A stretch of DNA of 64,000 bases from Candidatus Staskawiczbacteria bacterium (GCA_023245155.1 JAHFKV010000001.1:11034-75033); one strand, 5' to 3'. Shown: positions 1,968 to 60,318, counted from the stretch's first letter. The notes: generated by a model from the sequence alone, not told the origin. Made by a program: numbers and translations.

Positions 1968-2585
1968 TTAATTTTTGTTAAATCTTTTTTCTATGGCTTG
2001 CCAATTAACCACATTCCACCAGGCTTTTAAATAATCTGCCCGGACATTTTTGTACTGCAAATAATAGGCGTGCTCCCAGACATCATTTCCCAGAATTGGC
2101 GTGAGCCCCTCGCTCATCGGATTGTCCTGATTGGCGGTTGTCATAATTTCCAATCCCCCGTTTTTATTTTTTACCAGCCACACCCAGCCACTGCCGAAAC
2201 GCTTAGCGCCCGCATCATTAAATTTGGTTTTAAAATCTTCAAAACTGCTAAAAGTTTTTTTAATCTCTTCGGCTAATGCCCCACTTGGTTCACCGCCTGC
2301 ATTCGGAGCCATAATTTCCCAAAACATGCTGTGATTGACATGCCCCCCGCCATTATTTTTGATTACCATGCGAATATCTTCTGGAATGGCATTCAAATCC
2401 ATCAACAGCTCTTCTGCAGTTTTTTCAAATAACTCTGTATGCTTTTCCAAAGCGTCATTCAAATTTTTTATGTAAGCCGCATGGTGCTTGTCATGGTGCA
2501 GCTCCATAATTTCTTTAGAAATCACGGGCTCAAGCGTGTCATACGCATATGGCAACTCTGGCAAAGTGTGTAATTTTTTTTCCAT
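1968..2585 (-). CDS. sodA: Fe/Mn superoxide dismutase
   Basis: [28 protein letters not shown] signatures. Confidence 0.95.
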
Positions 2586-2601
2586 AGACTAATTATAGCA
2601 C

Positions 2602-3741
2602 TTAAATTTCCCCTTTTCTAATCTTTTCACGGATTTTGACAACGTATTCATTAAAGTAATGTAAATTATGGAACGTAATGAGTCGCAGGGCCGTAATTTC
2701 GCCTGCCCGCAGTAAATGACAAATGTAATCTTTTTTGTAGTTCAAGCACACCTGACATACGCAATTCTTGTCTAGCGGTTCGCGCTTTTTTAAAAACTTC
2801 TGCTGGCGCAAATTAAGACGGCCTTCAGAAGTAAAAGCAATTCCCCGCCTGGCATAATGGGTGGGCACCGTGCAGTCAAAGGTATCAACACCGGACTTAA
2901 TCAAATCTTCGATATTTTTTAAGTAGCCAACTCCCAACATGTGGCGTGGCTTCTTTTCGTCTAGCAAGGGAATAATCCACTGCAACACCCGGTTGGTTCC
3001 GCCCTTGTCGCGCCACAAATCTCCGCCAATACCAAAACCATCAAACCCCAACGAATTAATATATTTGGCGCTTGCCTCACGTAAATCCTTAAATTCTGAA
3101 CCTTGGATAATCCCAAAAAGGGCTTGCTTAGTTTTTCTTGCCTTCAGGCATATCTTCGCCCAGCGGTGCGTGCGCTCTAATGATTTTTTTACGTATTCAT
3201 AATCTGCTAACGGAGGAGTACATTCATCAAACGTAAACATAATATCAGCCCCGATGTTCTCTTGGATAGCGATTGATTCCTTTGGACCGATAAACAGTTG
3301 ATCACCATTAATGGGCGACTTAAAATACACCCCGTCCTGAGTAATTTTTACTGATTTTGGCTGTTTTGATTGCGTAATAACTTTTTTATCTTTCATGCCC
3401 TTGCCCAAAAACTTGGTCAAGCCAAAGTCACGCCCGAAACCCAAAGAAAAAACTTGGAACCCGCTGGAATCGGTCATGAGCGGTTTTTTCCAATTCATAA
3501 ATTTATGAATTCCACCAGCTTTATCAATGATTTTTTCTCCAGGGCGCAAATGTAACCAAAAAGTGTTGGAAATAAGCATTTGTGAATTAGTCTGCTCAAC
3601 CTCTTCGCTGGTCAATGTTTTTATAACCGCTTGCGTTGCCACAGGAATCAAGCACGGAGTCTGGACCACTCCGTGTTCTGTTTCCATAAACCCTAGCCGG
3701 GCATTGCTGATGTTCGATTTTTTGAGTATTTTAAAGTTCAT
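2602..3741 (-). CDS. tgt: queuine tRNA-ribosyltransferase (tRNA-guanine transglycosylase)
   Basis: 379 aa; TPCLIPVAT, MTDSSGFQV, CxCxxC zinc site (CVCQVC) typical of Tgt. Confidence 0.9.
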   Translation of the reverse strand: MNFKILKKSNISNARLGFMETEHGVVQTPCLIPVATQAVIKTLTSEEVEQTNSQMLISNTFWLHLRPGEKIIDKAGGIHKFMNWKKPLMTDSSGFQVFSLGFGRDFGLTKFLGKGMKDKKVITQSKQPKSVKITQDGVYFKSPINGDQLFIGPKESIAIQENIGADIMFTFDECTPPLADYEYVKKSLERTHRWAKICLKARKTKQALFGIIQGSEFKDLREASAKYINSLGFDGFGIGGDLWRDKGGTNRVLQWIIPLLDEKKPRHMLGVGYLKNIEDLIKSGVDTFDCTVPTHYARRGIAFTSEGRLNLRQQKFLKKREPLDKNCVCQVCLNYKKDYICHLLRAGEITALRLITFHNLHYFNEYVVKIREKIRKGEI

Positions 3742-5368: not shown

Positions 5369-7921
<2,553 letters not shown>

Positions 7922-8026: not shown

Positions 8027-9547
8027 TTATACAGTTTCAATGAATTTTCCGATCACCTCCTTCATTTTTGCTTCAATTTTATCGGTAATTTGGCGTTCTT
8101 TTTTCAGTGATTCCAGTAAGTCGCCATGCAAATCTTTCACGTATTCCAAAAACCTCACTTCAATTTCCTGGATTTTTTCCGGTTCAAAGTTATTGAAGTA
8201 ACCATTCAGTGCTGCATAAATTACCAGTACTTGGTTTTCAAATGGGAATGGCGCCAAGTCAGTTTGCTTTAAGACCTCCGTCATAATTCTGCCCCGATGG
8301 ATTTTTTGTTTGGTTTGTTCATCAACGTCGCTGGCAAACTGCATAAACGTTTGTAATTCGCGAAACTGCGCCAATTCAAGCCTTAATTTGCCCGCCACTT
8401 TTTTCATGGCTTTGGTTTGAGCCGATGTTCCCACGCGCGAAACCGACAAACCCACATTCACTGCCGGACGCGTGCCTTGATAAAATAAATCAGATTCTAA
8501 ATAAATCTGTCCGTCGGTGATGGAAATAACGTTGGTTGGGATATAGGCCGTGCCGTCGCCCAATTGTGTTTCAATGATTGGGATCGCCGTCAATGACCCT
8601 CCCCCATTTTCTTTGGACAGCTTTGCCGCGCGCTCTAAAAGCCTTGAATGCAAGTAAAACACATCTCCCGGATAAGCTTCTCTGCCTGGCGGTCTTCGCA
8701 AAAGCAAAGAAATTTGCCGATACGCCCAGGCGTGTTTGGACAAATCATCATAAATAATCAGCGCATCCTGGCCCTTATCACGGAAATATTCTCCAATGGC
8801 GCATCCCGCAAACGGTGCCAAATACCAAAAAGCTGCGGGGCTGGAAGCGGCGGCCGAAACTACAATGGCATTTTCAAAGGCATCATTATTTTTTAGTGTT
8901 TCTACTATTTTAGCCACCTTGGATTCTTTTTGCCCAACCGCCACATAAATGCAAATAATTTTACTGCCCTCGCGCGCTTGATTAATAATCATATCCAACG
9001 CAATAGCCGTTTTCCCGGTTCCACGGTCGCCGATAATTAATTCTCTTTGCCCTCGGCCAATCGGAATCATCGCGTCAATAGCTTTAATACCGGTGTGAAG
9101 CGGTTGATTGACCGATTCGCGCGCCAATACATTGGGCGCCTCGTTTTCCAAAAAATTAAGTTGCGGTTTTTCTTTTTCACTAAAAATCGGCCCCTTGCCA
9201 TCCAGAGGATTTCCCAAGGGGTCAACTACTCTGCCCAACAATTGCTCTCCAACCGGAATAGACAGAAGCTGCTTGGTCCTTTTTACCGTTTGACCGGCTT
9301 TTACCGCGACGCTATCACCCAACAGCAAGGCTCCTACAGCATCTTCTTCTAAATTCAGCGCTACAGCGTTAATTTTTTCTTTTTCTGTTTCAATAAGTAA
9401 AACCTCCTGGCTTTGCACATTTGAAAGGCCAGAAATTTTAATAATTCCATCCCCCACTTCAATCACTTTGCCAATTTCCTCCCACTCGGGGTTGTCTTGG
9501 TAACCCTCAATGGCTTTTTTTAATTTTTCTATAATTTCCTGCGACAT
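8027..9547 (-). CDS. atpA: ATP synthase F1 alpha subunit
   Basis: GDRGTGKT Walker A; 506 aa. Confidence 0.98.
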
Positions 9548-29017: not shown

Positions 29018-29156
29018 TGGCCAAACAACTTTTTATCGAATTCGTCAATATCCCACTATTCATTTCTCAATTTTCCACCCCACAATGGAACTCTCAGAAA
29101 TGCTGGGGAGATTGGCTTTCTCTCCCCCCCCCAAAAAAAAGTGTAAAGAACTGCGA

Positions 29157-29435
29157 TTAACTGTTGCGCGCCGAGTCGGTGGCGGCCGCATGTTCTGCCG
29201 CAACCGGCACCGTTGGTCCGGCCGCCAGAAGTTCGTCGTCCCCCATCCACGAATCTTGATCGTGCGGGTTTTCAACTTGGGCCGTGAAGGCATAGCCGAT
29301 CACCGAGGGCACATACGTGGGCCCATCATAGAAGTGGCCATCGCCCTTCAATTCCAGGAGAATCGGCCGGCGGGCCGTGTCCTGCCAGGCAACATAAAAG
29401 CCTGGTTTAACTGGCTTGAACGGGGTCCAATTCAT
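29157..29435 (-). CDS. orphan protein in GC-rich island 1
   Basis: 92 aa from MNWTPF; GAGGAG SD 6 nt upstream; the track version starts at a GTG at 29480. Confidence 0.55.
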   Translation of the reverse strand: MNWTPFKPVKPGFYVAWQDTARRPILLELKGDGHFYDGPTYVPSVIGYAFTAQVENPHDQDSWMGDDELLAAGPTVPVAAEHAAATDSARNS

Positions 29436-29570
29436 GACGTACTCCTCATTGAATATTGCGGCATGTACAAAGTGCTTCACGGGCTTGCCGCTTTGACGCC
29501 CGTTAATTGATTGATTTACGATAGCACAACTACTGTCTATGTCAATTACATCTCCCCACTACCCAAAAAA

Positions 29571-30973: not shown

Positions 30974-31011
30974 AGATTCATTGTATGTCCGCCTACGAAA
31001 ATTTACAAACC

Positions 31012-31039
31012 TTGTAAAGATATGTTTTTGTGGTAGTAT
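31012..31039 (+). promoter_or_regulatory. candidate sigma70 promoter of island-2 ORF
   Basis: TTGTAA-16 nt-(TGg)TAGTAT. Confidence 0.4.
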
Positions 31040-31080
31040 TTAGGTGATTTCAAACAAGGCTCTTTCATAAAGGACAAGTC

Positions 31081-31572
31081 ATGAACCTGCAAGGTCTCAA
31101 TTTCAATTTCGCAGAAAATATCGCCAAGACCATCCAAAACCTGCTCAAGCTCAGGCAATTCCCTCAGGACAGAAGGGGTGTGATATTTGGGAGTGCTCAT
31201 GCGCTACTCCCTGACACGCTCCTCGTTCAGCTCCTAGTTGGGGATTTACCAGCGGAAAGGGCGATACGATTTACCGGCTTCATGAAAGAAAAACTGAATC
31301 GCTCTTCCCAGCACAAAGACCATACAAGCGGCTACCAGAGTGCAGATTTCTCCGACGATCCAACCCGCGACCACAAGATGTACCCTGGTGCAATCACGAC
31401 GCCATCAGGGATCATCTTGTCCTGTTCGGGGGCGCCCTGGCAATGCGACGAACTGATTAATGCGATTGCAGGAGTCAATGCCAAGCTTATGGATGAAGCC
31501 CACGCATACGAAGTCGCAAAGATCAGCAAGAACGAGTGGTTCGACCTGTATCTCAACAAATTCGGCTGGTAG
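31081..31572 (+). CDS. orphan protein in GC-rich island 2
   Basis: 163 aa ORF with promoter, AAGGA SD and terminator; alternative start at 31282 (MKEKLN) if the antisense 31003..31200 ORF is real. Confidence 0.5.
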   Translation: MNLQGLNFNFAENIAKTIQNLLKLRQFPQDRRGVIFGSAHALLPDTLLVQLLVGDLPAERAIRFTGFMKEKLNRSSQHKDHTSGYQSADFSDDPTRDHKMYPGAITTPSGIILSCSGAPWQCDELINAIAGVNAKLMDEAHAYEVAKISKNEWFDLYLNKFGW

Positions 31573-31594
31573 ACATACTGCCAGACTGAATCAT

Positions 31595-31626
31595 AGCGAA
31601 CGCTCGCCCCGTTCGCTGTTTTTTTT
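31595..31626 (+). terminator. rho-independent terminator of island-2 ORF
   Basis: AGCGAACG-7 nt loop-CGTTCGCT then G + T8. Confidence 0.8.
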
Positions 31627-31641
31627 CAATACTTCACTTGC

Positions 31642-31791
31642 GTTTTAAGATTTAGTTTCCAAAGTGGCTCTCGCAGGCGAAAAAGCATGGTTTTTCGTGC
31701 AAAGACACGAAAATTTTTCGCTGAGAGTGCAGGGCGAAAAATCTCGCTGGAGATTTTTACGCCTGGCACTTTGGGGGCTAAATCTTAAAAC
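31642..31791 (+). repeat. three-way-junction structured repeat, copy A (candidate ncRNA)
   Basis: shares the conserved core with 47463-47641 and 60172-60296; 25-bp continuous closing helix; compensatory differences. Confidence 0.85.
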
Positions 31792-46447: not shown

Positions 46448-47122
46448 TTAATTCTTAATAGTTTCAATTACTTTACCATCGTCAATCCTCACAATTTTTT
46501 GCGCCATTTTGGCGTACTGTTCTTCGTGCGTCACCATAATAATGGTTTGGCCTTCGGCGTGCAATTCCTGAAAAATTTCCATGACAATCGCGCTCGATTC
46601 GTTATCCAAATTGGCGGTTGGCTCGTCTGCAAATAGAATAATCGGATGATTGGCAATTGCCCGGGCAATGCTGACACGCTGCTGCTCCCCGCCGGAAAGT
46701 TGGCTGGGTAAATTATTCAGCCGATGCGACAATTTCACTTTTACCAACGCATTTTTGGCACGAGTATAGGCTTGTGCTTTTTCCATATCTTCCATTAACA
46801 GTGGCAACACCACATTTTCCAACGTTGTCAGCTCTGGTAACAAAGCATAGTCCTGAAACACGTAACCGCATTTTTTCAATCTAAATTCCGTTTTTTCTTC
46901 CGGTTTCATGTTGTGGGCATGCTTTCCATCAATAATAATTTCGCCGCTGGTTGGTTCATCCAGCAAACTCATTTGATAAAGCAGAGTACTTTTCCCCGCG
47001 CCGCTTCTACCCATAATGGCAATAAATTCCCCTTGAGCTGCCTTAAAATCAATGCCTTTTAGCACATTGGTAACTTTATCCCCGTCGGTAAATGATTTGG
47101 TTAATTGTTTAGTTTGAATCAT
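46448..47122 (-). CDS. ABC transporter ATP-binding protein (MacB/LolD type)
   Basis: [24 protein letters not shown]. Confidence 0.93.
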
Positions 47123-47136
47123 ATGTTATGAGAAGA

Positions 47137-47165
47137 TTGATAATGCTAATTTTTTATTATATGAT
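47137..47165 (+). promoter_or_regulatory. candidate sigma70 promoter of island-3 ORF
   Basis: TTGATA-17 nt-TATGAT. Confidence 0.5.
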
Positions 47166-47207
47166 AGATTAAGTTTAGATTAAGTATTCCCAACTCCGAG
47201 GAGAACT

Positions 47208-47384
47208 ATGTTCAGACAAATCCTTTCTGTGATTTCGGCAGTGGCAGCCGTGATCCTACTGATCTGGACCCTGGGAAACACAGAGCCAGACAGCCTTGCA
47301 AGGTGTCTCAGCGTAGGAGGCGAGGTTGTACTGATAGGCGGTTATGCCGTCCTTGCGGGAAAGCATGCTCGGTTCTTAAGTTAA
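47208..47384 (+). CDS. 58-aa hydrophobic peptide in GC-rich island 3
   Basis: not in the track; GAGGAG SD 5 nt upstream; MFRQILSVISAVAAVILLIWTL...VVLIGGYAVLAGKHARFLS; terminator follows. Confidence 0.55.
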   Translation: MFRQILSVISAVAAVILLIWTLGNTEPDSLARCLSVGGEVVLIGGYAVLAGKHARFLS

Positions 47385-47406
47385 GACCTTGCTATCATTC
47401 ACTCAG

Positions 47407-47440
47407 GCCCACACGAAACTCAAGTAGTGTGGGCTTTTTT
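47407..47440 (+). terminator. rho-independent terminator of island-3 ORF
   Basis: GCCCACAC-12 nt loop-GTGTGGGC + T6. Confidence 0.8.
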
Positions 47441-47462
47441 CTTGCATAATTTTCAATCCACA

Positions 47463-47641
47463 TTTGCGAATCGGTGTGAGTTCTGAAAGTAACTCTCGGA
47501 GGCGATTTGGCACGGTCGGTGTGGTGTAATAATTCGACAGAATTAGTATACCACACCGCAAATCGCCGAGAGCGTAGGGCAAAAAATCTCGCTGGAGATT
47601 TTTATGCCCGGTACTTTCACGGGCTCACATCGGTTCGCAAA
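47463..47641 (+). repeat. three-way-junction structured repeat, copy B (candidate ncRNA)
   Basis: same core as copies A and C; 18-bp outer helix with two G-T pairs. Confidence 0.85.
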
Positions 47642-47642
47642 C

Positions 47643-48896
47643 CTAATTCCTCCCCAAAATACTATCCAACGTATTTTTTCTGACAATCATTCTACTTGGA
47701 ATATATCCTGCAATAATAGTGGAAATAATCAACAGGGCCATGCGCACTAGGGTTTCCCCCAGCGGCGCCACTAAAATACCATCGGAAAAAGGAAAATTAA
47801 TGGGGTGAGCCACAAATAAAGGGACTAAAACCACGTATACCAAAATCAGCCCCACAATTGACCCCACTAGCGCGTAAAAAATTGACTGAAACATATACGA
47901 AAACTCAATCGCTTGGCCATTAATGCCAATGCCCTTTAAAATACCAATAAATTTGCGGCGCGTCAGCGCATTAATAAAAATCACAATAAAAATAGTAATG
48001 GAAGAAACCACCAATCCAATGCTACTTAAAAAGTTTCCCAAAGTTCTAAAGGTGGCCACAATATCTTTTAAAAACTGCGGCTGGGCGTCGGCATAGGTTT
48101 GCACTTTAGCGGATTTATCAATACCGGCCAAAATTAACTTTTGCTTAAAAGCAATCGGGTCCACGCCATTTTTTAACACAATGGCAATTTGGCCCACGTT
48201 GCCATCATCCCGCCCAATTAAACTTTTCACTTCCGAATCAATCATAAAAATTCCGCGCCGCACATTGTCCACTTTACTGCGTAAAATGCCTTTCACCGTC
48301 ACCTCGCGCATGACACCATTCACACTAATCCTAATTTTAGTCCCCACGTACACATTTTTTAATGACTGAAAATCCGGGCTATCAATCGCCACATATTGCT
48401 TAAGCAAAAAATACCCCACCAAAACTTTATCATAATCATTGGGCGTCAAATAATTTCCTTCCAGCATATGACCCGAAAGGCCGGTGACCGAATTTTCATC
48501 CGCCGGGTTTATGCCAATTAATTGGGCCGAGGCGGTGTTGGCTTTGTCAGTTTCTTTTTTGGTTTGGTAATTGGCTTCCACCAAAGACCCGCTGGTATAA
48601 CGCGCGGAAAAAGACTTCACATCCGGCATATCTTTTAAAATATTTATAATATTCGGACTGCCTTCAATGTAAGCTTTGTTGTCCAAACTGGAAATAATTA
48701 CATCACCCGTAAATTGAGCGTGATAGGCCGCAATTGACCCTTCAATTAACCCCACCAAAATTCCGCTCACCACCACCAAATTCAAAAACGTTAAAATCAT
48801 CACAAACACAATCAGCCCCGTAGTCCAAGGGTTTGATCTTCTAATCTGCCTCCAGGCAAGAAAGAAACCGATTTTGATGTTTAAAAGTATTGACAT
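47643..48896 (-). CDS. ABC transporter permease (FtsX/MacB type)
   Basis: 417 aa, N-terminal TM, large periplasmic domain, C-terminal 3-TM FtsX domain. Confidence 0.88.
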   Translation of the reverse strand: MSILLNIKIGFFLAWRQIRRSNPWTTGLIVFVMILTFLNLVVVSGILVGLIEGSIAAYHAQFTGDVIISSLDNKAYIEGSPNIINILKDMPDVKSFSARYTSGSLVEANYQTKKETDKANTASAQLIGINPADENSVTGLSGHMLEGNYLTPNDYDKVLVGYFLLKQYVAIDSPDFQSLKNVYVGTKIRISVNGVMREVTVKGILRSKVDNVRRGIFMIDSEVKSLIGRDDGNVGQIAIVLKNGVDPIAFKQKLILAGIDKSAKVQTYADAQPQFLKDIVATFRTLGNFLSSIGLVVSSITIFIVIFINALTRRKFIGILKGIGINGQAIEFSYMFQSIFYALVGSIVGLILVYVVLVPLFVAHPINFPFSDGILVAPLGETLVRMALLIISTIIAGYIPSRMIVRKNTLDSILGRN

Positions 48897-48917
48897 TTTA
48901 TAAATAAATGATAGTAT
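48890..48917 (+). promoter_or_regulatory. candidate sigma70 promoter of island-4 ORF
   Basis: TTGACA-16 nt-TAGTAT; the -35 overlaps the permease start codon. Confidence 0.5.
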
Positions 48918-48958
48918 TTAATTAGTTTCCCGACACCCCCCACTCAAGGAGAAACGTC

Positions 48959-49123
48959 ATGAAGCAGGTAGCCATCCCCCTCGACGAACGAAAGTGGCAA
49001 ATCATCATTGCCGCGCTGAAAATCGCAGCCCGTTCCGGCAATTCCAGAATGGGCAGGGAGGCCCAGGAACTGGAAACTGAAGTTGCGGAGGCCCTTAAGA
49101 AGGTGCCCAAAGAAGAAAAATAA
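48959..49123 (+). CDS. 54-aa charged helical protein in GC-rich island 4
   Basis: not in the track; AAGGAG SD; MKQVAIPLDERKWQIIIAALKIAARSGNSRMGREAQELETEVAEALKKVPKEEK. Confidence 0.55.
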   Translation: MKQVAIPLDERKWQIIIAALKIAARSGNSRMGREAQELETEVAEALKKVPKEEK

Positions 49124-49146
49124 TCAAAGCCTTCTGCGATCAACAG

Positions 49147-49173
49147 AAGACTCGTGCGCCCGCGAGTCTTTTT
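49147..49173 (+). terminator. rho-independent terminator of island-4 ORF
   Basis: AAGACTCG-8 nt loop-CGAGTCTT + T-run. Confidence 0.75.
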
Positions 49174-49190
49174 CCTTACAAATTTTCAAA

Positions 49191-50729
49191 CTACTTTATA
49201 ATCACCACGTCGCCATCTTTGAGCCCCGAAACAATTTCCGCTTGGCCGGAAGAAGAAATTTCTCCCACCACAACGGCTCGTTGCTCAATCTTATCTCCAT
49301 TTTTTACCGGTACAAACTTTCCTGAAGCGTCACCAGTAATAATTCCTTGTGGCACGGCAATCACGTTTGATTTTTTTTCAGTGGTAATCACCACATTGGC
49401 CGTCATACCATTACGCACATCCACACCATTATCATTTAATTCCAATTTTAACTTATAGGTTGAAACGCCATCTTTAATGGTTTCCGATGGGTCAATCGAA
49501 ACCACTTCGGCGTTAAATATTTTATCTGCACCATAAGCATCCAGCGTCACATCGGCATCATTTCCAATTTTTACCAACGCCACATAAATTTCCGGCACAT
49601 AACTTTCAATTTGAAATTTTCCTGCGCTAATCATGCTCGCCGCTGGCTCGGTAACCGAAGAAATACTGCCCACTTTGGCATTAACGGTTGTAATCGTTCC
49701 ATCAATCGGAGCAAAAATTTCCCGCTTTCTTATCTGTGCCTGCACATCTTGAGCCTGAGCCTCGGCCTGACTAATTTGCGCCTGATAAACCGCAATGTCG
49801 GTGTCTCTGGCCGGAGCCTTAACCGAATCCAAATTATTTTGCGCTTGCTGCAAAGCAGTTTTATAAGAAGCAATACTCGTCTGGCTAGCAGTTAAATTAG
49901 TCAGCGCCGTATTAATATTGGTTTTTTGTGTATCGAGCGAAGCTTTGTCGGTAGCGGTAACTCTTGAATAGTAGACATCAATATCGCACTGCTCCCTGAT
50001 CACTTTTAAGCCCGCATAGGTATTATTAAGATCCGAAAGCACACGACTTATTTGGGTATCAGGAGCGCCCTGCAAACCATTATTTGCGTCACCAAGATTA
50101 TTTTTAGCATCTTGTAAATCATGGCTAATATCATTTTTGGCATTCTGTACATTAATACCTGCAGCATCAGCACTGGTAAAATACGTGTTTTGCATGTACA
50201 GCGCCACCGTATAAGCATTGTAAATGGCATTGTACGATGTATTTAAGGTAACCAAAGTGCTCTGATCAGCATTCTTTAAATCTTGGTCAGCTGAGGCCAC
50301 TTTATCCTCTGCAATTTTAACATCTTCGTGGCTGGCGCCCGCCAAAAGCTGTGCCAACTTGGCTTTTTGCAAATCAATCCCGGCCCGCATTTGAGATAAT
50401 TGGGCACTCAATTGGGCTATATCTTGGCTGGCAATAAACTTGCCGGCAAAAACCTGGTCGCCCTCTTTTACCGTAACCGCCCGGACAATTCCCGCTTGCT
50501 CAAACGACAAATCCAAATTTTGGGTGGCCATCACCTTCCCTGAAACCGAAACCTGCTGCAAAAAATCGGCCGGATGCACGGTCAGCGTTTGCTGGGTTGT
50601 TTTTTTATTAAAGAAAAGAAAGTAGGCGCCAAGAACTACAACAATAGCAACAATTCCCCAAATAATTCTTCTTCGCCAGGCCATAGCTTTAGCGGAGGCT
50701 GGTTTTGTAAATAGCTTTTTGATATTCAT
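49191..50729 (-). CDS. HlyD/MacA-type periplasmic adaptor with long coiled coil
   Basis: TM anchor, lipoyl-like and beta-barrel ends, ~250 aa Ala/Gln-rich coiled coil. Confidence 0.8.
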   Translation of the reverse strand: MNIKKLFTKPASAKAMAWRRRIIWGIVAIVVVLGAYFLFFNKKTTQQTLTVHPADFLQQVSVSGKVMATQNLDLSFEQAGIVRAVTVKEGDQVFAGKFIASQDIAQLSAQLSQMRAGIDLQKAKLAQLLAGASHEDVKIAEDKVASADQDLKNADQSTLVTLNTSYNAIYNAYTVALYMQNTYFTSADAAGINVQNAKNDISHDLQDAKNNLGDANNGLQGAPDTQISRVLSDLNNTYAGLKVIREQCDIDVYYSRVTATDKASLDTQKTNINTALTNLTASQTSIASYKTALQQAQNNLDSVKAPARDTDIAVYQAQISQAEAQAQDVQAQIRKREIFAPIDGTITTVNAKVGSISSVTEPAASMISAGKFQIESYVPEIYVALVKIGNDADVTLDAYGADKIFNAEVVSIDPSETIKDGVSTYKLKLELNDNGVDVRNGMTANVVITTEKKSNVIAVPQGIITGDASGKFVPVKNGDKIEQRAVVVGEISSSGQAEIVSGLKDGDVVIIK

Positions 50730-50731
50730 GG

Positions 50732-51157
50732 TTATATTTTTGAAAGTAATTTATATTGCAATTTCACATATTGTTTTAATTCCGCATCGCTTAATGCGCC
50801 AAATAAAGTGTGGGCAATAGCTTCGTGCCGCTTTTTCATGGTTACAGCATACGTTTTTCCCTTTTTAGAAACTGCCAGGTCAAGTTCACGCTTATCGTGC
50901 TTGTTGGTTTTACGTGTGATAAAGCCCCGGTGCACTAGCTCGCCCACCAGCTGGGTAGCGGCGCTTTGAGAAACCCCAAGCTTTTGGGCAATATCCTTAA
51001 CGCTGGCGTTTTTGTGGACGGCAATCAATTCAAGCACACACCACTGTGAAAGGGTAAGAGTATGTTTATCGCCATCCAAAAACTGCGCTTGCATTTTGTT
51101 CTTGAAGGCTTGAAAGTTATTGATAATTTGCGCAATCAGCTGCTTTTTGGTCTGCAT
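50732..51157 (-). CDS. MarR-family transcriptional regulator
   Basis: winged HTH VKDIAQKLGVSQSAATQLVGELVHRGFITR. Confidence 0.88.
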   Translation of the reverse strand: MQTKKQLIAQIINNFQAFKNKMQAQFLDGDKHTLTLSQWCVLELIAVHKNASVKDIAQKLGVSQSAATQLVGELVHRGFITRKTNKHDKRELDLAVSKKGKTYAVTMKKRHEAIAHTLFGALSDAELKQYVKLQYKLLSKI

Positions 51158-51161
51158 ATTA

Positions 51162-51195
51162 TTAGTTAAGATACTTATATAAGTATCTTAACTAA
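51162..51195. promoter_or_regulatory. perfect 34-bp palindrome, probable MarR operator overlapping the operon promoter
   Basis: TTAGTTAAGATACTTAT|ATAAGTATCTTAACTAA; minus-strand TTGACA (51208-51213)-17 nt-TAAGAT (51185-51190). Confidence 0.7.
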
Positions 51196-51240
51196 TTCAA
51201 AGCTGCGTGTCAACAAGCCCCTCCTCCTCAGAACGATTTG

Positions 51241-51269
51241 TTGACAAATAACTTTAATACATGTAGGAT
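51241..51269 (+). promoter_or_regulatory. sigma70 promoter of island-5 ORF
   Basis: TTGACA-17 nt-TAGGAT, AGGAGG SD at 51312. Confidence 0.6.
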
Positions 51270-51322
51270 AGTAATAAATTAGAAGCGCGCCCTTTCAATC
51301 ACTTAATAAATAGGAGGCCGGT

Positions 51323-51754
51323 ATGCGACGATCTCATGTGGTCTTTTATAGGACCAACCCAAACAATCCGAAGGCAGCAGCGCGAATCGTACAGAAGGCA
51401 AGGGAACTATTTGAGCCGATTTGCCGTGCTGGGGACATCCACTTTCACGCAGCCACGATCCCACCACCCACCCGAGCAGTGCAAGGAAACGAATTCCAGG
51501 TGATGCTGAATTTCATTTTCCCAAATCAGGAAAGCTACGAGTGGTATATGGCTCATGAGAACCATCGTGCATTCGTGCGCTTCGTGCTGTTCGGACTGAG
51601 ATTGAAGGGCGATGAGGAAGTGGGTGCCCAAAACCGATTCTTCGCCCACGTCCTCTACTCATCGCCCAGCGATCCACCCAAAGAATGGGAAAAAGATCCG
51701 GATATCGCTGAAGACTTCGTCGTCTGGGGAGGTGAAAGGGTCTTCGATGCCTAA
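51323..51754 (+). CDS. Dabb-like (stress-responsive alpha/beta barrel) protein in GC-rich island 5
   Basis: 143 aa; FPNQESYEWYMAHENHRAFV resembles the Dabb signature; tentative. Confidence 0.55.
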   Translation: MRRSHVVFYRTNPNNPKAAARIVQKARELFEPICRAGDIHFHAATIPPPTRAVQGNEFQVMLNFIFPNQESYEWYMAHENHRAFVRFVLFGLRLKGDEEVGAQNRFFAHVLYSSPSDPPKEWEKDPDIAEDFVVWGGERVFDA

Positions 51755-51818
51755 CCCAACCATCCACCGCGTTCTCGCTATAAGCTCACTGGTCAATTTG
51801 ATCTTTGGGCTTCTTTTT

Positions 51819-52595
51819 TTATATCTCAATCTCCACCTCCACCGGGCAATGGTCGCTGCCCAAAACTTCCGGCAAAATTAAGGCTTTTTTTATTTTAGGT
51901 TTTAACACCTTGCTGGCAAAGATGTAGTCAATGCGCCAGCCGACGTTCCTTGCCCTGGAATTGGCAAAATGGCTCCACCAGGTGTAGTGGCCATTGCCCT
52001 GCGTAAACATTCTGAACGTATCAACAAAACCGGCTTTCACCACATTATCAATTCCGCTTCTCTCTTCTGTTGTGAATCCCTTTTTACCCACATTTGGTTT
52101 TGGATTGGCCAAGTCGTCAGCCGTGTGCGCCACATTTAAGTCTCCGCAGAAAACGACAGGCTTAGATTTCTCAAGCTGGCGCATGTATTCCAAAAACGCA
52201 GGATCCCATTGTTTGTGGCGCAATGGAATTCTACTCAAATCATCCTTGGCATTGGGAGTATAAACAGAAACCACAAAAAACTTTTCAAACTCCGCAGTTA
52301 TCACCCTTCCCTCGCGAGCTGGATCCCCATAACTGTCTTCAAATTTTCCCTTCATTCCATTAATAACAGAAATAGGCTTTTCTTTCGTAAAAATAGCTGT
52401 GCCACTGTAGCCCGGCCGTTCGGCCGAATTCCAATATTCTTCATAATCTGGCAGGTCAACTTCGCTTTGGTGGTCAAACGCCTTTGTTTCCTGCAAACAC
52501 AACACATCCGGCTGATATTTTTCAATAAACGGCAAAAACAGTCCCTTTTTATGGACTGCTCTAATGCCATTCACATTCCAAGAGATGATTTTCAT
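51819..52595 (-). CDS. xth: exodeoxyribonuclease III
   Basis: MKIISWNVNGIRA, LQETK, SDHCPV. Confidence 0.95.
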   Translation of the reverse strand: MKIISWNVNGIRAVHKKGLFLPFIEKYQPDVLCLQETKAFDHQSEVDLPDYEEYWNSAERPGYSGTAIFTKEKPISVINGMKGKFEDSYGDPAREGRVITAEFEKFFVVSVYTPNAKDDLSRIPLRHKQWDPAFLEYMRQLEKSKPVVFCGDLNVAHTADDLANPKPNVGKKGFTTEERSGIDNVVKAGFVDTFRMFTQGNGHYTWWSHFANSRARNVGWRIDYIFASKVLKPKIKKALILPEVLGSDHCPVEVEIEI

Positions 52596-55276: not shown

Positions 55277-55294
55277 GAATTTGGAGCGAAGGCA

Positions 55295-55348
55295 TTCTTC
55301 CAAAAGAGCTCCTCGGAGGCGAGCCGCTTTGTCGGCTCGCTGAGAGAG
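55295..55348 (+). repeat. partial (5' half) copy of the three-way-junction repeat
   Basis: TTCCAAAAG-AGCTCCTCG-GAG-GCGAGCCG-CTTTGT-CGGCTCGC-TGAGAG; no P3 and no 3' P1 arm. Confidence 0.55.
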
Positions 55349-55417
55349 AAGCAAATTTTTCTATATCGTTGTGGAAAAATTATGCTGTATCTTTTGGGGG
55401 AATGCCCAAGCAAAATG

Positions 55418-58500: not shown

Positions 58501-60138
<1,638 letters not shown>

Positions 60139-60171
60139 TTAAGATTTATGATTTAGGATTTATGAAGCGAC

Positions 60172-60296
60172 GCGTCAGTTTCCAAAGTAGCTCTCGGAGG
60201 CGATTTTGCAGGTCCCGCGAAGCGGGAAAATCGCCGAGAGGCGCAGGGCAAAAATCTCGCTGGAGATTTTATGCCCGGTACTTTGGGGGCTGATGC
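60172..60296 (+). repeat. three-way-junction structured repeat, copy C (candidate ncRNA), in the groES-groEL spacer
   Basis: core identical in architecture to copies A and B; 189-nt spacer. Confidence 0.85.
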
Positions 60297-60318
60297 AGAG
60301 CGAAATACCCGCACGCAA

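Follow-up and report, generated by a model that had tools for sequence, protein, structure and literature searches.

Candidate moron-like cassettes lying antisense in the junctions of a marR-macA(hlyD)-ftsX-ABC operon of Candidatus Staskawiczbacteria

The genomes of bacteria of the Candidate Phyla Radiation (CPR) are described as streamlined and tightly packed. How, then, does an efflux-pump operon of one of these bacteria come to have both of its internal gaps occupied by small genes of the opposite strand? The locus lies in a stretch of 64,000 nucleotides (GCA_023245155.1, JAHFKV010000001.1:11034-75033; the window in what follows) from a CPR bacterium whose nearest public loci are labelled Candidatus Staskawiczbacteria, Parcubacteria or Paceibacterota. 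On the minus strand, which carries nearly all the genes of the window (42.7% GC), Pfam and NCBIfam matches confirm the gene order first proposed from the sequence alone (the original prediction): a MarR-family regulator, a MacA/HlyD-type adaptor, an FtsX/MacB-type permease and an ABC ATPase. The gap lengths given at that time, 294 nt between HlyD and FtsX (48897-49190) and 520 nt between FtsX and ABC (47123-47642), are exact. Each gap holds a plus-strand unit with a short open reading frame (ORF), of 54 aa in the HlyD|FtsX gap (mini54, cassette 2) and of 58 aa in the FtsX|ABC gap (mini58, cassette 1), and a third unit with a 143-aa ORF (cassette 3) is found upstream of marR. The reading that we favour, with a probability of about 0.65, is that these units are moron-like, autonomous and horizontally acquired cassettes inserted into a compact marR-macA(hlyD)-ftsX-ABC operon, which would now be a candidate noncontiguous operon.

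The evidence for insertion comes from 39 orthologous loci taken from genome and metagenome collections. The synteny ExoIII-MarR-HlyD-FtsX-ABC-(LUD)-SIMPL-HIT-DnaG-sigma is conserved in the clade, and in about 30 of the 39 loci the pump genes are tightly spaced, with HlyD-FtsX gaps of at most 40 nt and FtsX-ABC gaps of at most 47 nt; the frequent distances of 1-11 nt are compatible with translational coupling. As the junctions are usually tight in orthologues, including two of the closest relatives, L016 (83% FtsX identity, gaps of -1 and 1 nt) and L018 (85% FtsX identity, gaps of 11 and 11 nt), the expanded gaps are lineage-specific insertions. They occur in the window, L001, L002 (identical to L017), L003, L004, L005, L009 (identical to L021) and L022, which in a neighbour-joining tree of FtsX and ABC are polyphyletic and interspersed with tight-gap loci. 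No homologue of mini54 or mini58 is encoded in any of the relative loci fetched, nor are the cassette ORFs homologous to those of any other locus, except for the 143-aa protein, which has a match in L040. In view of the tree and the non-homology of the ORFs we reject a single ancestral gene as the source of the units. The comparison with relatives, already proposed in the original prediction, bears out its view of the cassettes as insertions: the junctions are mostly tight, and these ORFs, at normal GC content, are not a universal feature of orthologous operons. An assembly artefact is excluded, because the same layout and gap sizes recur in independent ENA, Logan and NCBI assemblies; an exact look-up of the FtsX protein for strain-level presence/absence polymorphism found an identical layout in 4/4 contigs.

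The build initially ascribed to the units of both gaps, namely a promoter, a Shine-Dalgarno (SD) sequence, an ORF and a terminator, can be located in the sequence with coordinates and predicted hairpin energies (Table 1), as can the ORF, SD and terminator of the divergent plus-strand cassette announced upstream of marR (51241-51754). In the latter, a hairpin at 51782-51812 (-15.8 kcal/mol) is followed by a T-run, and the promoter is back-to-back with that of marR. The -35 hexamer of cassette 2 (48890-48895) does share 2 nt with the start codon of FtsX (48894-48896), and at the other end its conserved tail directly abuts the HlyD stop codon. Mini54 is hydrophilic and helical-looking, and mini58 is hydrophobic with two predicted transmembrane (TM) segments. 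The ORFs are also GC-richer, as had been noted. Five intergenic ORFs of this kind are present in the window, at 29157-29438 (-), 31081-31572 (+), 47208-47384 (+), 48959-49123 (+) and 51323-51754 (+), with a GC content of 0.51-0.60 versus a mean of 0.42 and a maximum of 0.495 in host genes (Mann-Whitney p ~1e-4), and each of them exceeds all 68 host ORFs. Moreover, an SD core of at least 5 nt precedes 5/5 of these ORFs, where it is of the AGGAG type and correctly spaced, versus 4/66 host genes (Fisher p ~1e-5); two of the four SD-bearing host genes have it mis-spaced, and host starts are preceded by A/T-rich leaders. This combination of GC content and SD usage is a foreign signature. Since the host genes are SD-less, in line with the reported absence of the 16S anti-SD motif from a Parcubacteria subgroup (PMC9297842), the SDs of the cassettes look like relics of the donor.

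A second line of evidence is that the same junction has been filled differently in related genomes. In the FtsX|ABC junction L001, L002 and L004 carry differing, non-homologous antisense units, in all of which a TTGACA promoter is found next to the start of ABC and a terminator next to the stop of FtsX. The 68-aa product of the L002 unit has two TM segments, the L004 unit contains an ORF of 57 aa, acidic and Pro-rich, in a gap with 58% GC, and that of L001, with no intact ORF, looks like a decayed cassette. The cassettes of the window and of these three loci have in common a homologous terminator tail, TTTTTCTTRYAAATTTTC. Across 368 kb searched on both strands, the motif TTRYA(W)AATTTTC has seven occurrences, of which five (four independent) come directly after cassette terminators, and from terminator to tail the window HlyD|FtsX and L004 FtsX|ABC cassettes are identical at 31/35 nt (z 11.9). 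L004 harbours four cassettes, none farther than 3.5 kb from the pump operon, with ORFs of 58-68% GC in a locus of 47% GC. The three additional ones (60-68% GC) comprise one directly upstream of marR and a tandem pair that begins ~1.3 kb downstream of the ABC gene, one member of which ends in the tail TTTTTCTTACAAA. All five in-operon cassettes of the window, L001, L002 and L004 are antisense, a count that is statistically not strong given their possible shared ancestry. At the 5' side, the similarity between the untranslated regions of the cassettes (an AGTnnCCCGAC-like block, seen by eye and with MAFFT) did not rise above shuffles in pairwise local alignment, and no convincing target-site duplications or terminal inverted repeats were found at the gap boundaries. 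The junctions of other relatives are filled with short palindromic or MITE-like elements (L004 4892-4988, with GTCATTCCCGCGAAAGCGGGAATC-type hairpins; L005 6243-6695, a long inverted repeat; the gaps of L003 and L022). The junctions of this operon are thus general landing sites for small elements.

What these cassettes encode can be addressed best for the third one. In a word-indexed search of 5.8 billion proteins mini54, mini58 and the 143-aa protein matched only themselves, and no significant family in Pfam, PHROGs, NCBIfam or PADLOC was obtained for the cassette ORFs of the window and L004, the exception being a weak Dabb match of the 143-aa protein (19.4 bits versus a cutoff of 25); mini58 gave a weak, below-threshold PHROG match to a TciB-like small membrane protein (E 0.0098). 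For the 143-aa protein, 43 remote homologues of equal length were recovered, the profile of this family matches PDB 3bn7, a DABB protein (E 7e-8), and the top Foldseek matches of its AlphaFold2 model (pLDDT 96.4) are DABB proteins as well. The product of cassette 3 is a real protein of DABB fold (dimeric alpha/beta barrel, ferredoxin-like beta-alpha-beta-beta-alpha-beta). Because its nearest homologues are SD-led and reside in genomes of 55-58% GC, the sequence data are compatible with acquisition of the gene from a higher-GC, SD-using lineage. Among the fetched loci its match in L040, an unrelated higher-GC locus found through homologue P0003, is the only one, and L018 is without the third cassette, with a spacer of ~95 nt between ExoIII and marR.

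Table 1. Positions of the pump genes, cassette parts, candidate promoters and repeat copies in the window, and of the cassettes of L004 in that locus
Feature	Position	Strand	Basis
ABC transporter ATPase, last pump gene	46448-47122	-	Pfam ABC_tran, E 5.8e-35
Cassette 1 promoter, TTGATA-17-TATGAT, 15 nt from ABC start codon	47137-47165	+	promoter scan 10/12
Candidate ABC promoter, TTAATC-16-TATAAT	47156-47183	-	scan 9/12; prediction only
Cassette 1 mini-ORF, 58 aa (mini58), SD GAGGAG, GC 0.52	47208-47384	+	ORF and SD reading
Cassette 1 intrinsic terminator and tail	47405-47455	+	10-bp hairpin 47405-47436 (-17 kcal/mol), T6, conserved tail CTTGCATAATTTTCAA
Repeat copy B	47470-47632	+	FtsX|ABC gap; folds at -102 kcal/mol (plus) vs -84 (minus)
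FtsX/MacB-type permease	47643-48896	-	Pfam FtsX E 9e-10; NCBIfam LolCE and MacB-like matches
Cassette 2 promoter, TTGACA-16-TAGTAT, extended TG	48890-48917	+	promoter scan, perfect-consensus search
Weak candidate FtsX promoter, GTGTCG-17-TATCAT, near-leaderless transcript	48908-48936	-	scan 8/12; prediction only
Cassette 2 mini-ORF, 54 aa (mini54), SD AAGGAG, GC 0.53, GC at third codon positions (GC3) 0.62	48959-49123	+	ORF and SD reading
Terminator-like hairpin and U-rich tract, operon direction, just past HlyD stop	49127-49153	-	scan, 11 pairs; centroid fold -14 kcal/mol
Cassette 2 intrinsic terminator and tail	49145-49190	+	hairpin 49145-49172 (-15.5 kcal/mol), T5, tail CCTTACAAATTTTCAAA
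Membrane-fusion (HlyD/MacA-type) adaptor	49191-50729	-	Pfam HlyD_3, HlyD_D23; NCBIfam RND_mfp E 1e-37
MarR-family regulator	50732-51157	-	Pfam MarR, E 2e-15
marR promoter, TTGACA-17-TAAGAT, and palindrome	51161-51213	-	promoter scan, sequence reading
Cassette 3	51241-51821	+	promoter TTGACA-17-TAGGAT 51241-51269, SD AGGAGG, ORF 51323-51754 (143 aa), terminator
Repeat copy A	31645-31786	+	between plus-strand cassette and minus-strand gene
Repeat copy D, diverged	55287-55408	+	
Repeat copy C	60168-60298	+	groES|groEL spacer
L004 cassette	2335-2875	+	architecture as in window cassettes
L004 cassette	6243-6619	-	architecture as in window cassettes
L004 cassette	8598-9018	+	architecture as in window cassettes
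L004 cassette	9032-9370	+	architecture as in window cassettes

The course of events suggested by these data would start with an ancestral marR-macA(hlyD)-ftsX-ABC operon that was compact and probably translationally coupled. Three units, in each of which a GC-rich orphan ORF with its SD is framed by a sigma70 promoter and an intrinsic terminator, would have colonised it in this lineage, and an accessory pump locus of this kind would gather cassettes chiefly through its tolerance of insertions. Within the operon, survival would be restricted to the antisense orientation, a co-directional insertion being polar. The cassette terminators are unidirectional (when read in the operon direction they show an A-run followed by the hairpin, with no U-tract), so that an antisense cassette need not stop operon transcription while a co-directional one would be polar, and this polarity may account for the exclusively antisense orientation of the in-operon cassettes. 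The pump genes would now be expressed either by read-through across the cassettes, which would make the locus a noncontiguous operon with mutual interference or double-stranded RNA (dsRNA) limited to the spacers, or from new back-to-back promoters located in the AT-rich 5' ends of the cassettes. Candidates for the latter are found in both gaps, where the -10 elements of the putative ABC and FtsX promoters overlap by 2 nt those of the cassette 1 and cassette 2 promoters, respectively; no separate minus-strand promoter was found inside the ORF or the terminator region of either cassette. The locus may thus be either a noncontiguous operon or one split into three units. The original prediction expected convergent transcription to interfere with, or to gate, the expression of the downstream pump genes. 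Since the minus-strand promoter candidates are back-to-back with those of the cassettes and the terminators are unidirectional, interference is only one of several possible outcomes, and gating of the pump is a possible, candidate regulatory effect.

A side aspect of this geometry concerns the start of FtsX, whose codons 2-3 are Ser-Ile (ATG TCA ATA; 48888-48896) versus Phe-Leu or Pro-Val in L001, L003, L016 and L018. The changes at these codons produce the TTGACA -35 of the antisense promoter, and because of this the cassette 2 promoter, partly within host coding sequence, may in part have evolved there. In cassette 1, a 10/11 AT-rich direct repeat, TTAAGTT(T/A)AGA (47169-47179 and 47376-47386), flanks the SD and ORF of mini58; it could be a chance occurrence in AT-rich DNA or the trace of an ORF inserted into an existing promoter/terminator frame.

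Several points weigh against the reading as horizontally acquired, moron-like cassettes. The promoters and terminators of the cassettes and the translation of the mini-ORFs are predictions, and with a host ribosome that had no anti-SD, the SD may be just a relic of the donor and translation of the mini-ORFs may be poor or fail altogether. The AT-rich cassette promoters look host-like and one -35 lies within the FtsX coding sequence, which means that part of the module may be assembled in situ and not imported. The shared tail is found mainly at the junctions of this operon and in one L004 cassette ~2 kb downstream of ABC, a distribution that could mean one ancestral insertion spread by homologous recombination instead of repeated insertion. 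Finally, location in a phage genome, which belongs to the definition of a phage moron, is not observed here, and the searches brought up neither a donor nor a carrier element, a recombinase or a target-site duplication.

The moron concept is said to go back to Hendrix and Juhala, and that of noncontiguous operons reportedly to Saenz-Lahoya in 2019. The original prediction knew of no described arrangement like this one, a view that does not hold, since operons interrupted by opposite-strand genes are known as noncontiguous operons, a form of excludon (PMC11034616, PMC7154746), and phage morons are promoter-ORF-terminator modules of deviant GC located between genes that are adjacent in relatives, with hotspots where different morons have integrated (PMC2920897). 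Like morons, the present cassettes would each combine one ORF with a sigma70-type promoter and a factor-independent terminator of its own; they deviate in composition, are inserted between genes adjacent in related genomes, differ at one junction across genomes as in a hotspot, and have products mostly of unknown function. Unlike morons, they reside in a cellular chromosome among dnaG, rpoD and groESL and not in a phage or prophage, lie head-on inside a host operon, bear SDs in an SD-less host and have a common short conserved terminator tail. No phage signal was detected at the locus in PHROGs, in phage records (blastn of both gaps) or as a close viral-contig match; scans of viral contigs with the 143-aa ORF, the L004 140-aa ORF and a further 163-aa ORF of the window (described below) gave nothing or weak partial matches, and the last one has no relative there.

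With noncontiguous operons the locus shares the layout MarR-HlyD / mini54(+) / FtsX / mini58(+) / ABC, in which linked co-directional genes are split by small opposite-strand ORFs, and the expectation of overlapping transcripts and mutual repression. In Staphylococcus aureus noncontiguous operons with a peptide gene of <50 aa, that gene is the opposite-strand one in 7/8 cases (PMC11034616). Noncontiguous operons are, however, defined by co-transcription across the antisense genes, while the present one is a candidate by its sequence layout; its interrupters are foreign insertions of recent date, different from one close relative to another, instead of conserved partners, and the candidate internal promoters and the possible terminator after hlyD may have split it. 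Integron cassettes resemble these units in their orphan ORFs, in a conserved structured 3' end and in the tandem arrangement of two of the L004 cassettes, but each of the present cassettes has its own promoter and they are scattered, not arrayed. There are no attC core sites (RYYYAAC / GTTRRRY), the 3' ends being formed by hairpin, T-run and TTACAAATTTTCAA, and the available gene annotation, which covers ~20 kb around the locus, shows no integrase or attI; for lack of core sites and integrase we reject the integron-cassette reading. Antisense genes within operons and moron architecture are thus already described, and no new regulatory principle is involved; what would be new here is the colonisation of an operon-junction hotspot by moron-like orphan cassettes in SD-less Parcubacteria.

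A broader proposal, which we regard as tentative and rather doubtful, is that these units represent an undescribed class of mobile expression cassettes of Parcubacteria, with a host-type promoter, an SD-led GC-rich foreign ORF and a hairpin-T5-6-CTTRYAAATTTTCAA tail, that repeatedly colonise accessory-operon junctions in antisense within SD-independent genomes. If true, phage morons would have in them a counterpart on the chromosome, equipped with an insertion or exchange mechanism of its own. Natural competence is a candidate route, with uptake of DNA from the bacterial hosts of the episymbiont. Horizontal gene transfer and DNA uptake are documented in Patescibacteria (PMC12455944), which counts in favour of the main reading of horizontally acquired cassettes.

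The strongest competitor of the insertion of moron-like cassettes is an evolved regulatory device, a noncontiguous operon or excludon in which antisense mini-genes gate FtsX and ABC through interference or dsRNA. The head-on geometry is real, with a -35 overlapping the FtsX start codon, the in-operon cassettes are antisense in 5/5 cases, and small antisense peptide genes are on record in noncontiguous operons. We nevertheless consider it unlikely: the cassettes are lineage-specific, non-homologous orphans and the pumps of most relatives do without them, the L001 cassette is without an intact ORF, similar cassettes are also found outside the operon, and survivorship explains the antisense orientation equally well, the terminator being non-polar only when facing the operon. 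Furthermore, no MarR-operator-like site is found at the cassette promoters, as only the palindrome of the marR promoter matches.

Much less probable is that the mini-genes code for pump-related peptides, either exported substrates, bacteriocin-like or immunity proteins, or membrane modulators of a MacAB/YknXYZ-like pump. This would fit with the location of 3/5 cassettes of the 64-kb window within the 5.4-kb pump locus, of the four L004 cassettes no more than 3.5 kb from the pump operon, and with the small two-TM proteins encoded by the FtsX|ABC cassettes of both the window and L002, but clustering was the selection criterion of the finding and is hence biased. The ORFs are unrelated in sequence and character (acidic and Pro-rich in L004, hydrophilic in mini54, none in L001), show no leader or bacteriocin family signal, and are absent from most orthologous pumps. 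A type I toxin-antitoxin-like module, with mini58 as a hydrophobic toxin checked by the complementary pump-operon transcript, seems more remote still. The 58-aa size, the strong promoter, the full antisense overlap with a read-through pump mRNA and the weak TciB-like match mentioned above would suit such a toxin, whereas the lack of any family match above threshold, the hydrophilic character of mini54 and of the L004 ORF, and the failure to find a dedicated promoter for an antitoxin RNA, which leaves pump-operon read-through as the only possible antisense, speak against it.

It should also be asked whether such units can arise by chance. Loose promoter-like matches are not enriched in the window (26 found versus 21 expected), and generic terminator scans are likewise not enriched over shuffles. 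Perfect TTGACA-N16-18-TAnnnT promoters occur seven times in the 64 kb: two belong to cassettes 2 and 3, and among the remaining five, one belongs to a further GC-rich cassette and three are found at groES, marR and a cold-shock gene. A strict filter that demanded a promoter, an SD, a terminator and an ORF of 40-200 aa exceeding the GC content of the locus by at least 6 points returned 7 units in ~400 kb of the window and related loci, namely the three window cassettes, three of L004 and one of L025. That there are no genes at all, just chance patterns in decaying intergenic or inserted DNA, would agree with the unenriched generic scans, a host that may not use SDs and mini-ORFs without homologues, but is scarcely credible given the rarity of the full composite (a -35 without mismatch, correctly spaced, an SD that precedes the ATG by 6-9 nt, a gap-filling ORF, and a hairpin with a T-run 15-25 nt past the stop), its recurring order and spacing in several genomes, and a third cassette encoding a confidently folded protein with 43 homologues.

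Another element is present in the FtsX|ABC gap. The repeat copy B that the original prediction placed there is confirmed (Table 1) and is independent of the mini-gene cassette; it belongs to a separate family of four copies of 120-165 nt, all on the plus strand, that fold into a Y shape with a three-way junction, and it would have landed separately in the gap. The closing-stem and arm sequences vary between copies with compensatory changes, and owing to conserved U-G pairs the plus strand folds more stably than the minus strand, by 12-18 kcal/mol. All copies are situated in spacers, groES|groEL and M48|BacA among them, and run antisense to the neighbouring minus-strand host genes; a weak covariance-model match, also antisense, appears in the FtsX|ABC gap of L005. 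Like REP/BIME, Correia and MITE-like repeats, they are short (130-165 nt), highly structured and multi-copy, and located in spacers between co-directional genes, also inside operons such as groES|groEL; unlike them, their closing stems are compensatory instead of conserved terminal inverted repeats, and the four copies share one strand polarity and conserved G-U pairs. No transposase associated with the family was found, and Rfam holds no family for copy B or the cassettes (gathering thresholds across the whole window; E <=10 in the FtsX|ABC gap). Upstream of copy A as well as of copy B a similar stretch, TTTTCAATnC..CACwTTGCG, directly follows a cassette terminator (31620-31645 and 47435-47465); either the repeat unit reaches beyond its structured core on the 5' side or the element lands preferentially at terminator tails.

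Two more units of the window share features with the cassettes. At 29100-29550 (-) a 92-aa orphan ORF (29160-29438, GC 0.60) is SD-led behind TTGACA-16-TATCGT, and at 30985-31635 (+) a 163-aa orphan ORF (31081-31572, GC 0.51) is SD-led and ends in a strong terminator followed by repeat copy A; neither has a match in Pfam, PHROGs, NCBIfam or PADLOC. GATTTAWG-type A/T heptamer runs, which may act as an SD-independent leader or translation enhancer, lie directly upstream of the starts of groEL (60130-60165 in the window) and of ABC (L001, L002); in L002 they form an inverted pair on either side of the gap.

As for the pump itself, adaptor, permease and ATPase are encoded together, as expected for a MacAB-type tripartite exporter, with synteny kept in the 39 loci, in a wider neighbourhood of housekeeping genes (rpoD, dnaG, groESL, uvrA). 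The locus is like MacAB/YknXYZ-type exporters under MarR control in its adaptor, its FtsX/MacB-type permease, its separate ATPase and a marR with a putative palindromic operator ahead, and unlike its relatives, whose junctions are mostly tight, in the 294 and 520 nt due to inserted units. The perfect 36-bp palindrome at 51161-51196 (ATTAGTTAAGATACTTAT / ATAAGTATCTTAACTAAT), overlapping the -10 of the marR promoter, is likely a MarR autoregulatory operator, and its half-site GTTAAGATACTTAA is also seen upstream of marR in L004.

A last question is what these cassettes tell about the biology of Parcubacteria. The locus shows where and how orphan genes enter a streamlined genome, as self-contained units wedged into a junction hotspot common to related lineages. 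That the cassettes are GC-rich and have SDs, which the host genes lack, offers a simple, computable marker of recent acquisitions in Parcubacteria, and raises the question whether cassette genes can be translated by ribosomes reportedly without anti-SD. The locus provides a natural test case of whether head-on insertions turn a coupled operon into a noncontiguous one or into separate units.

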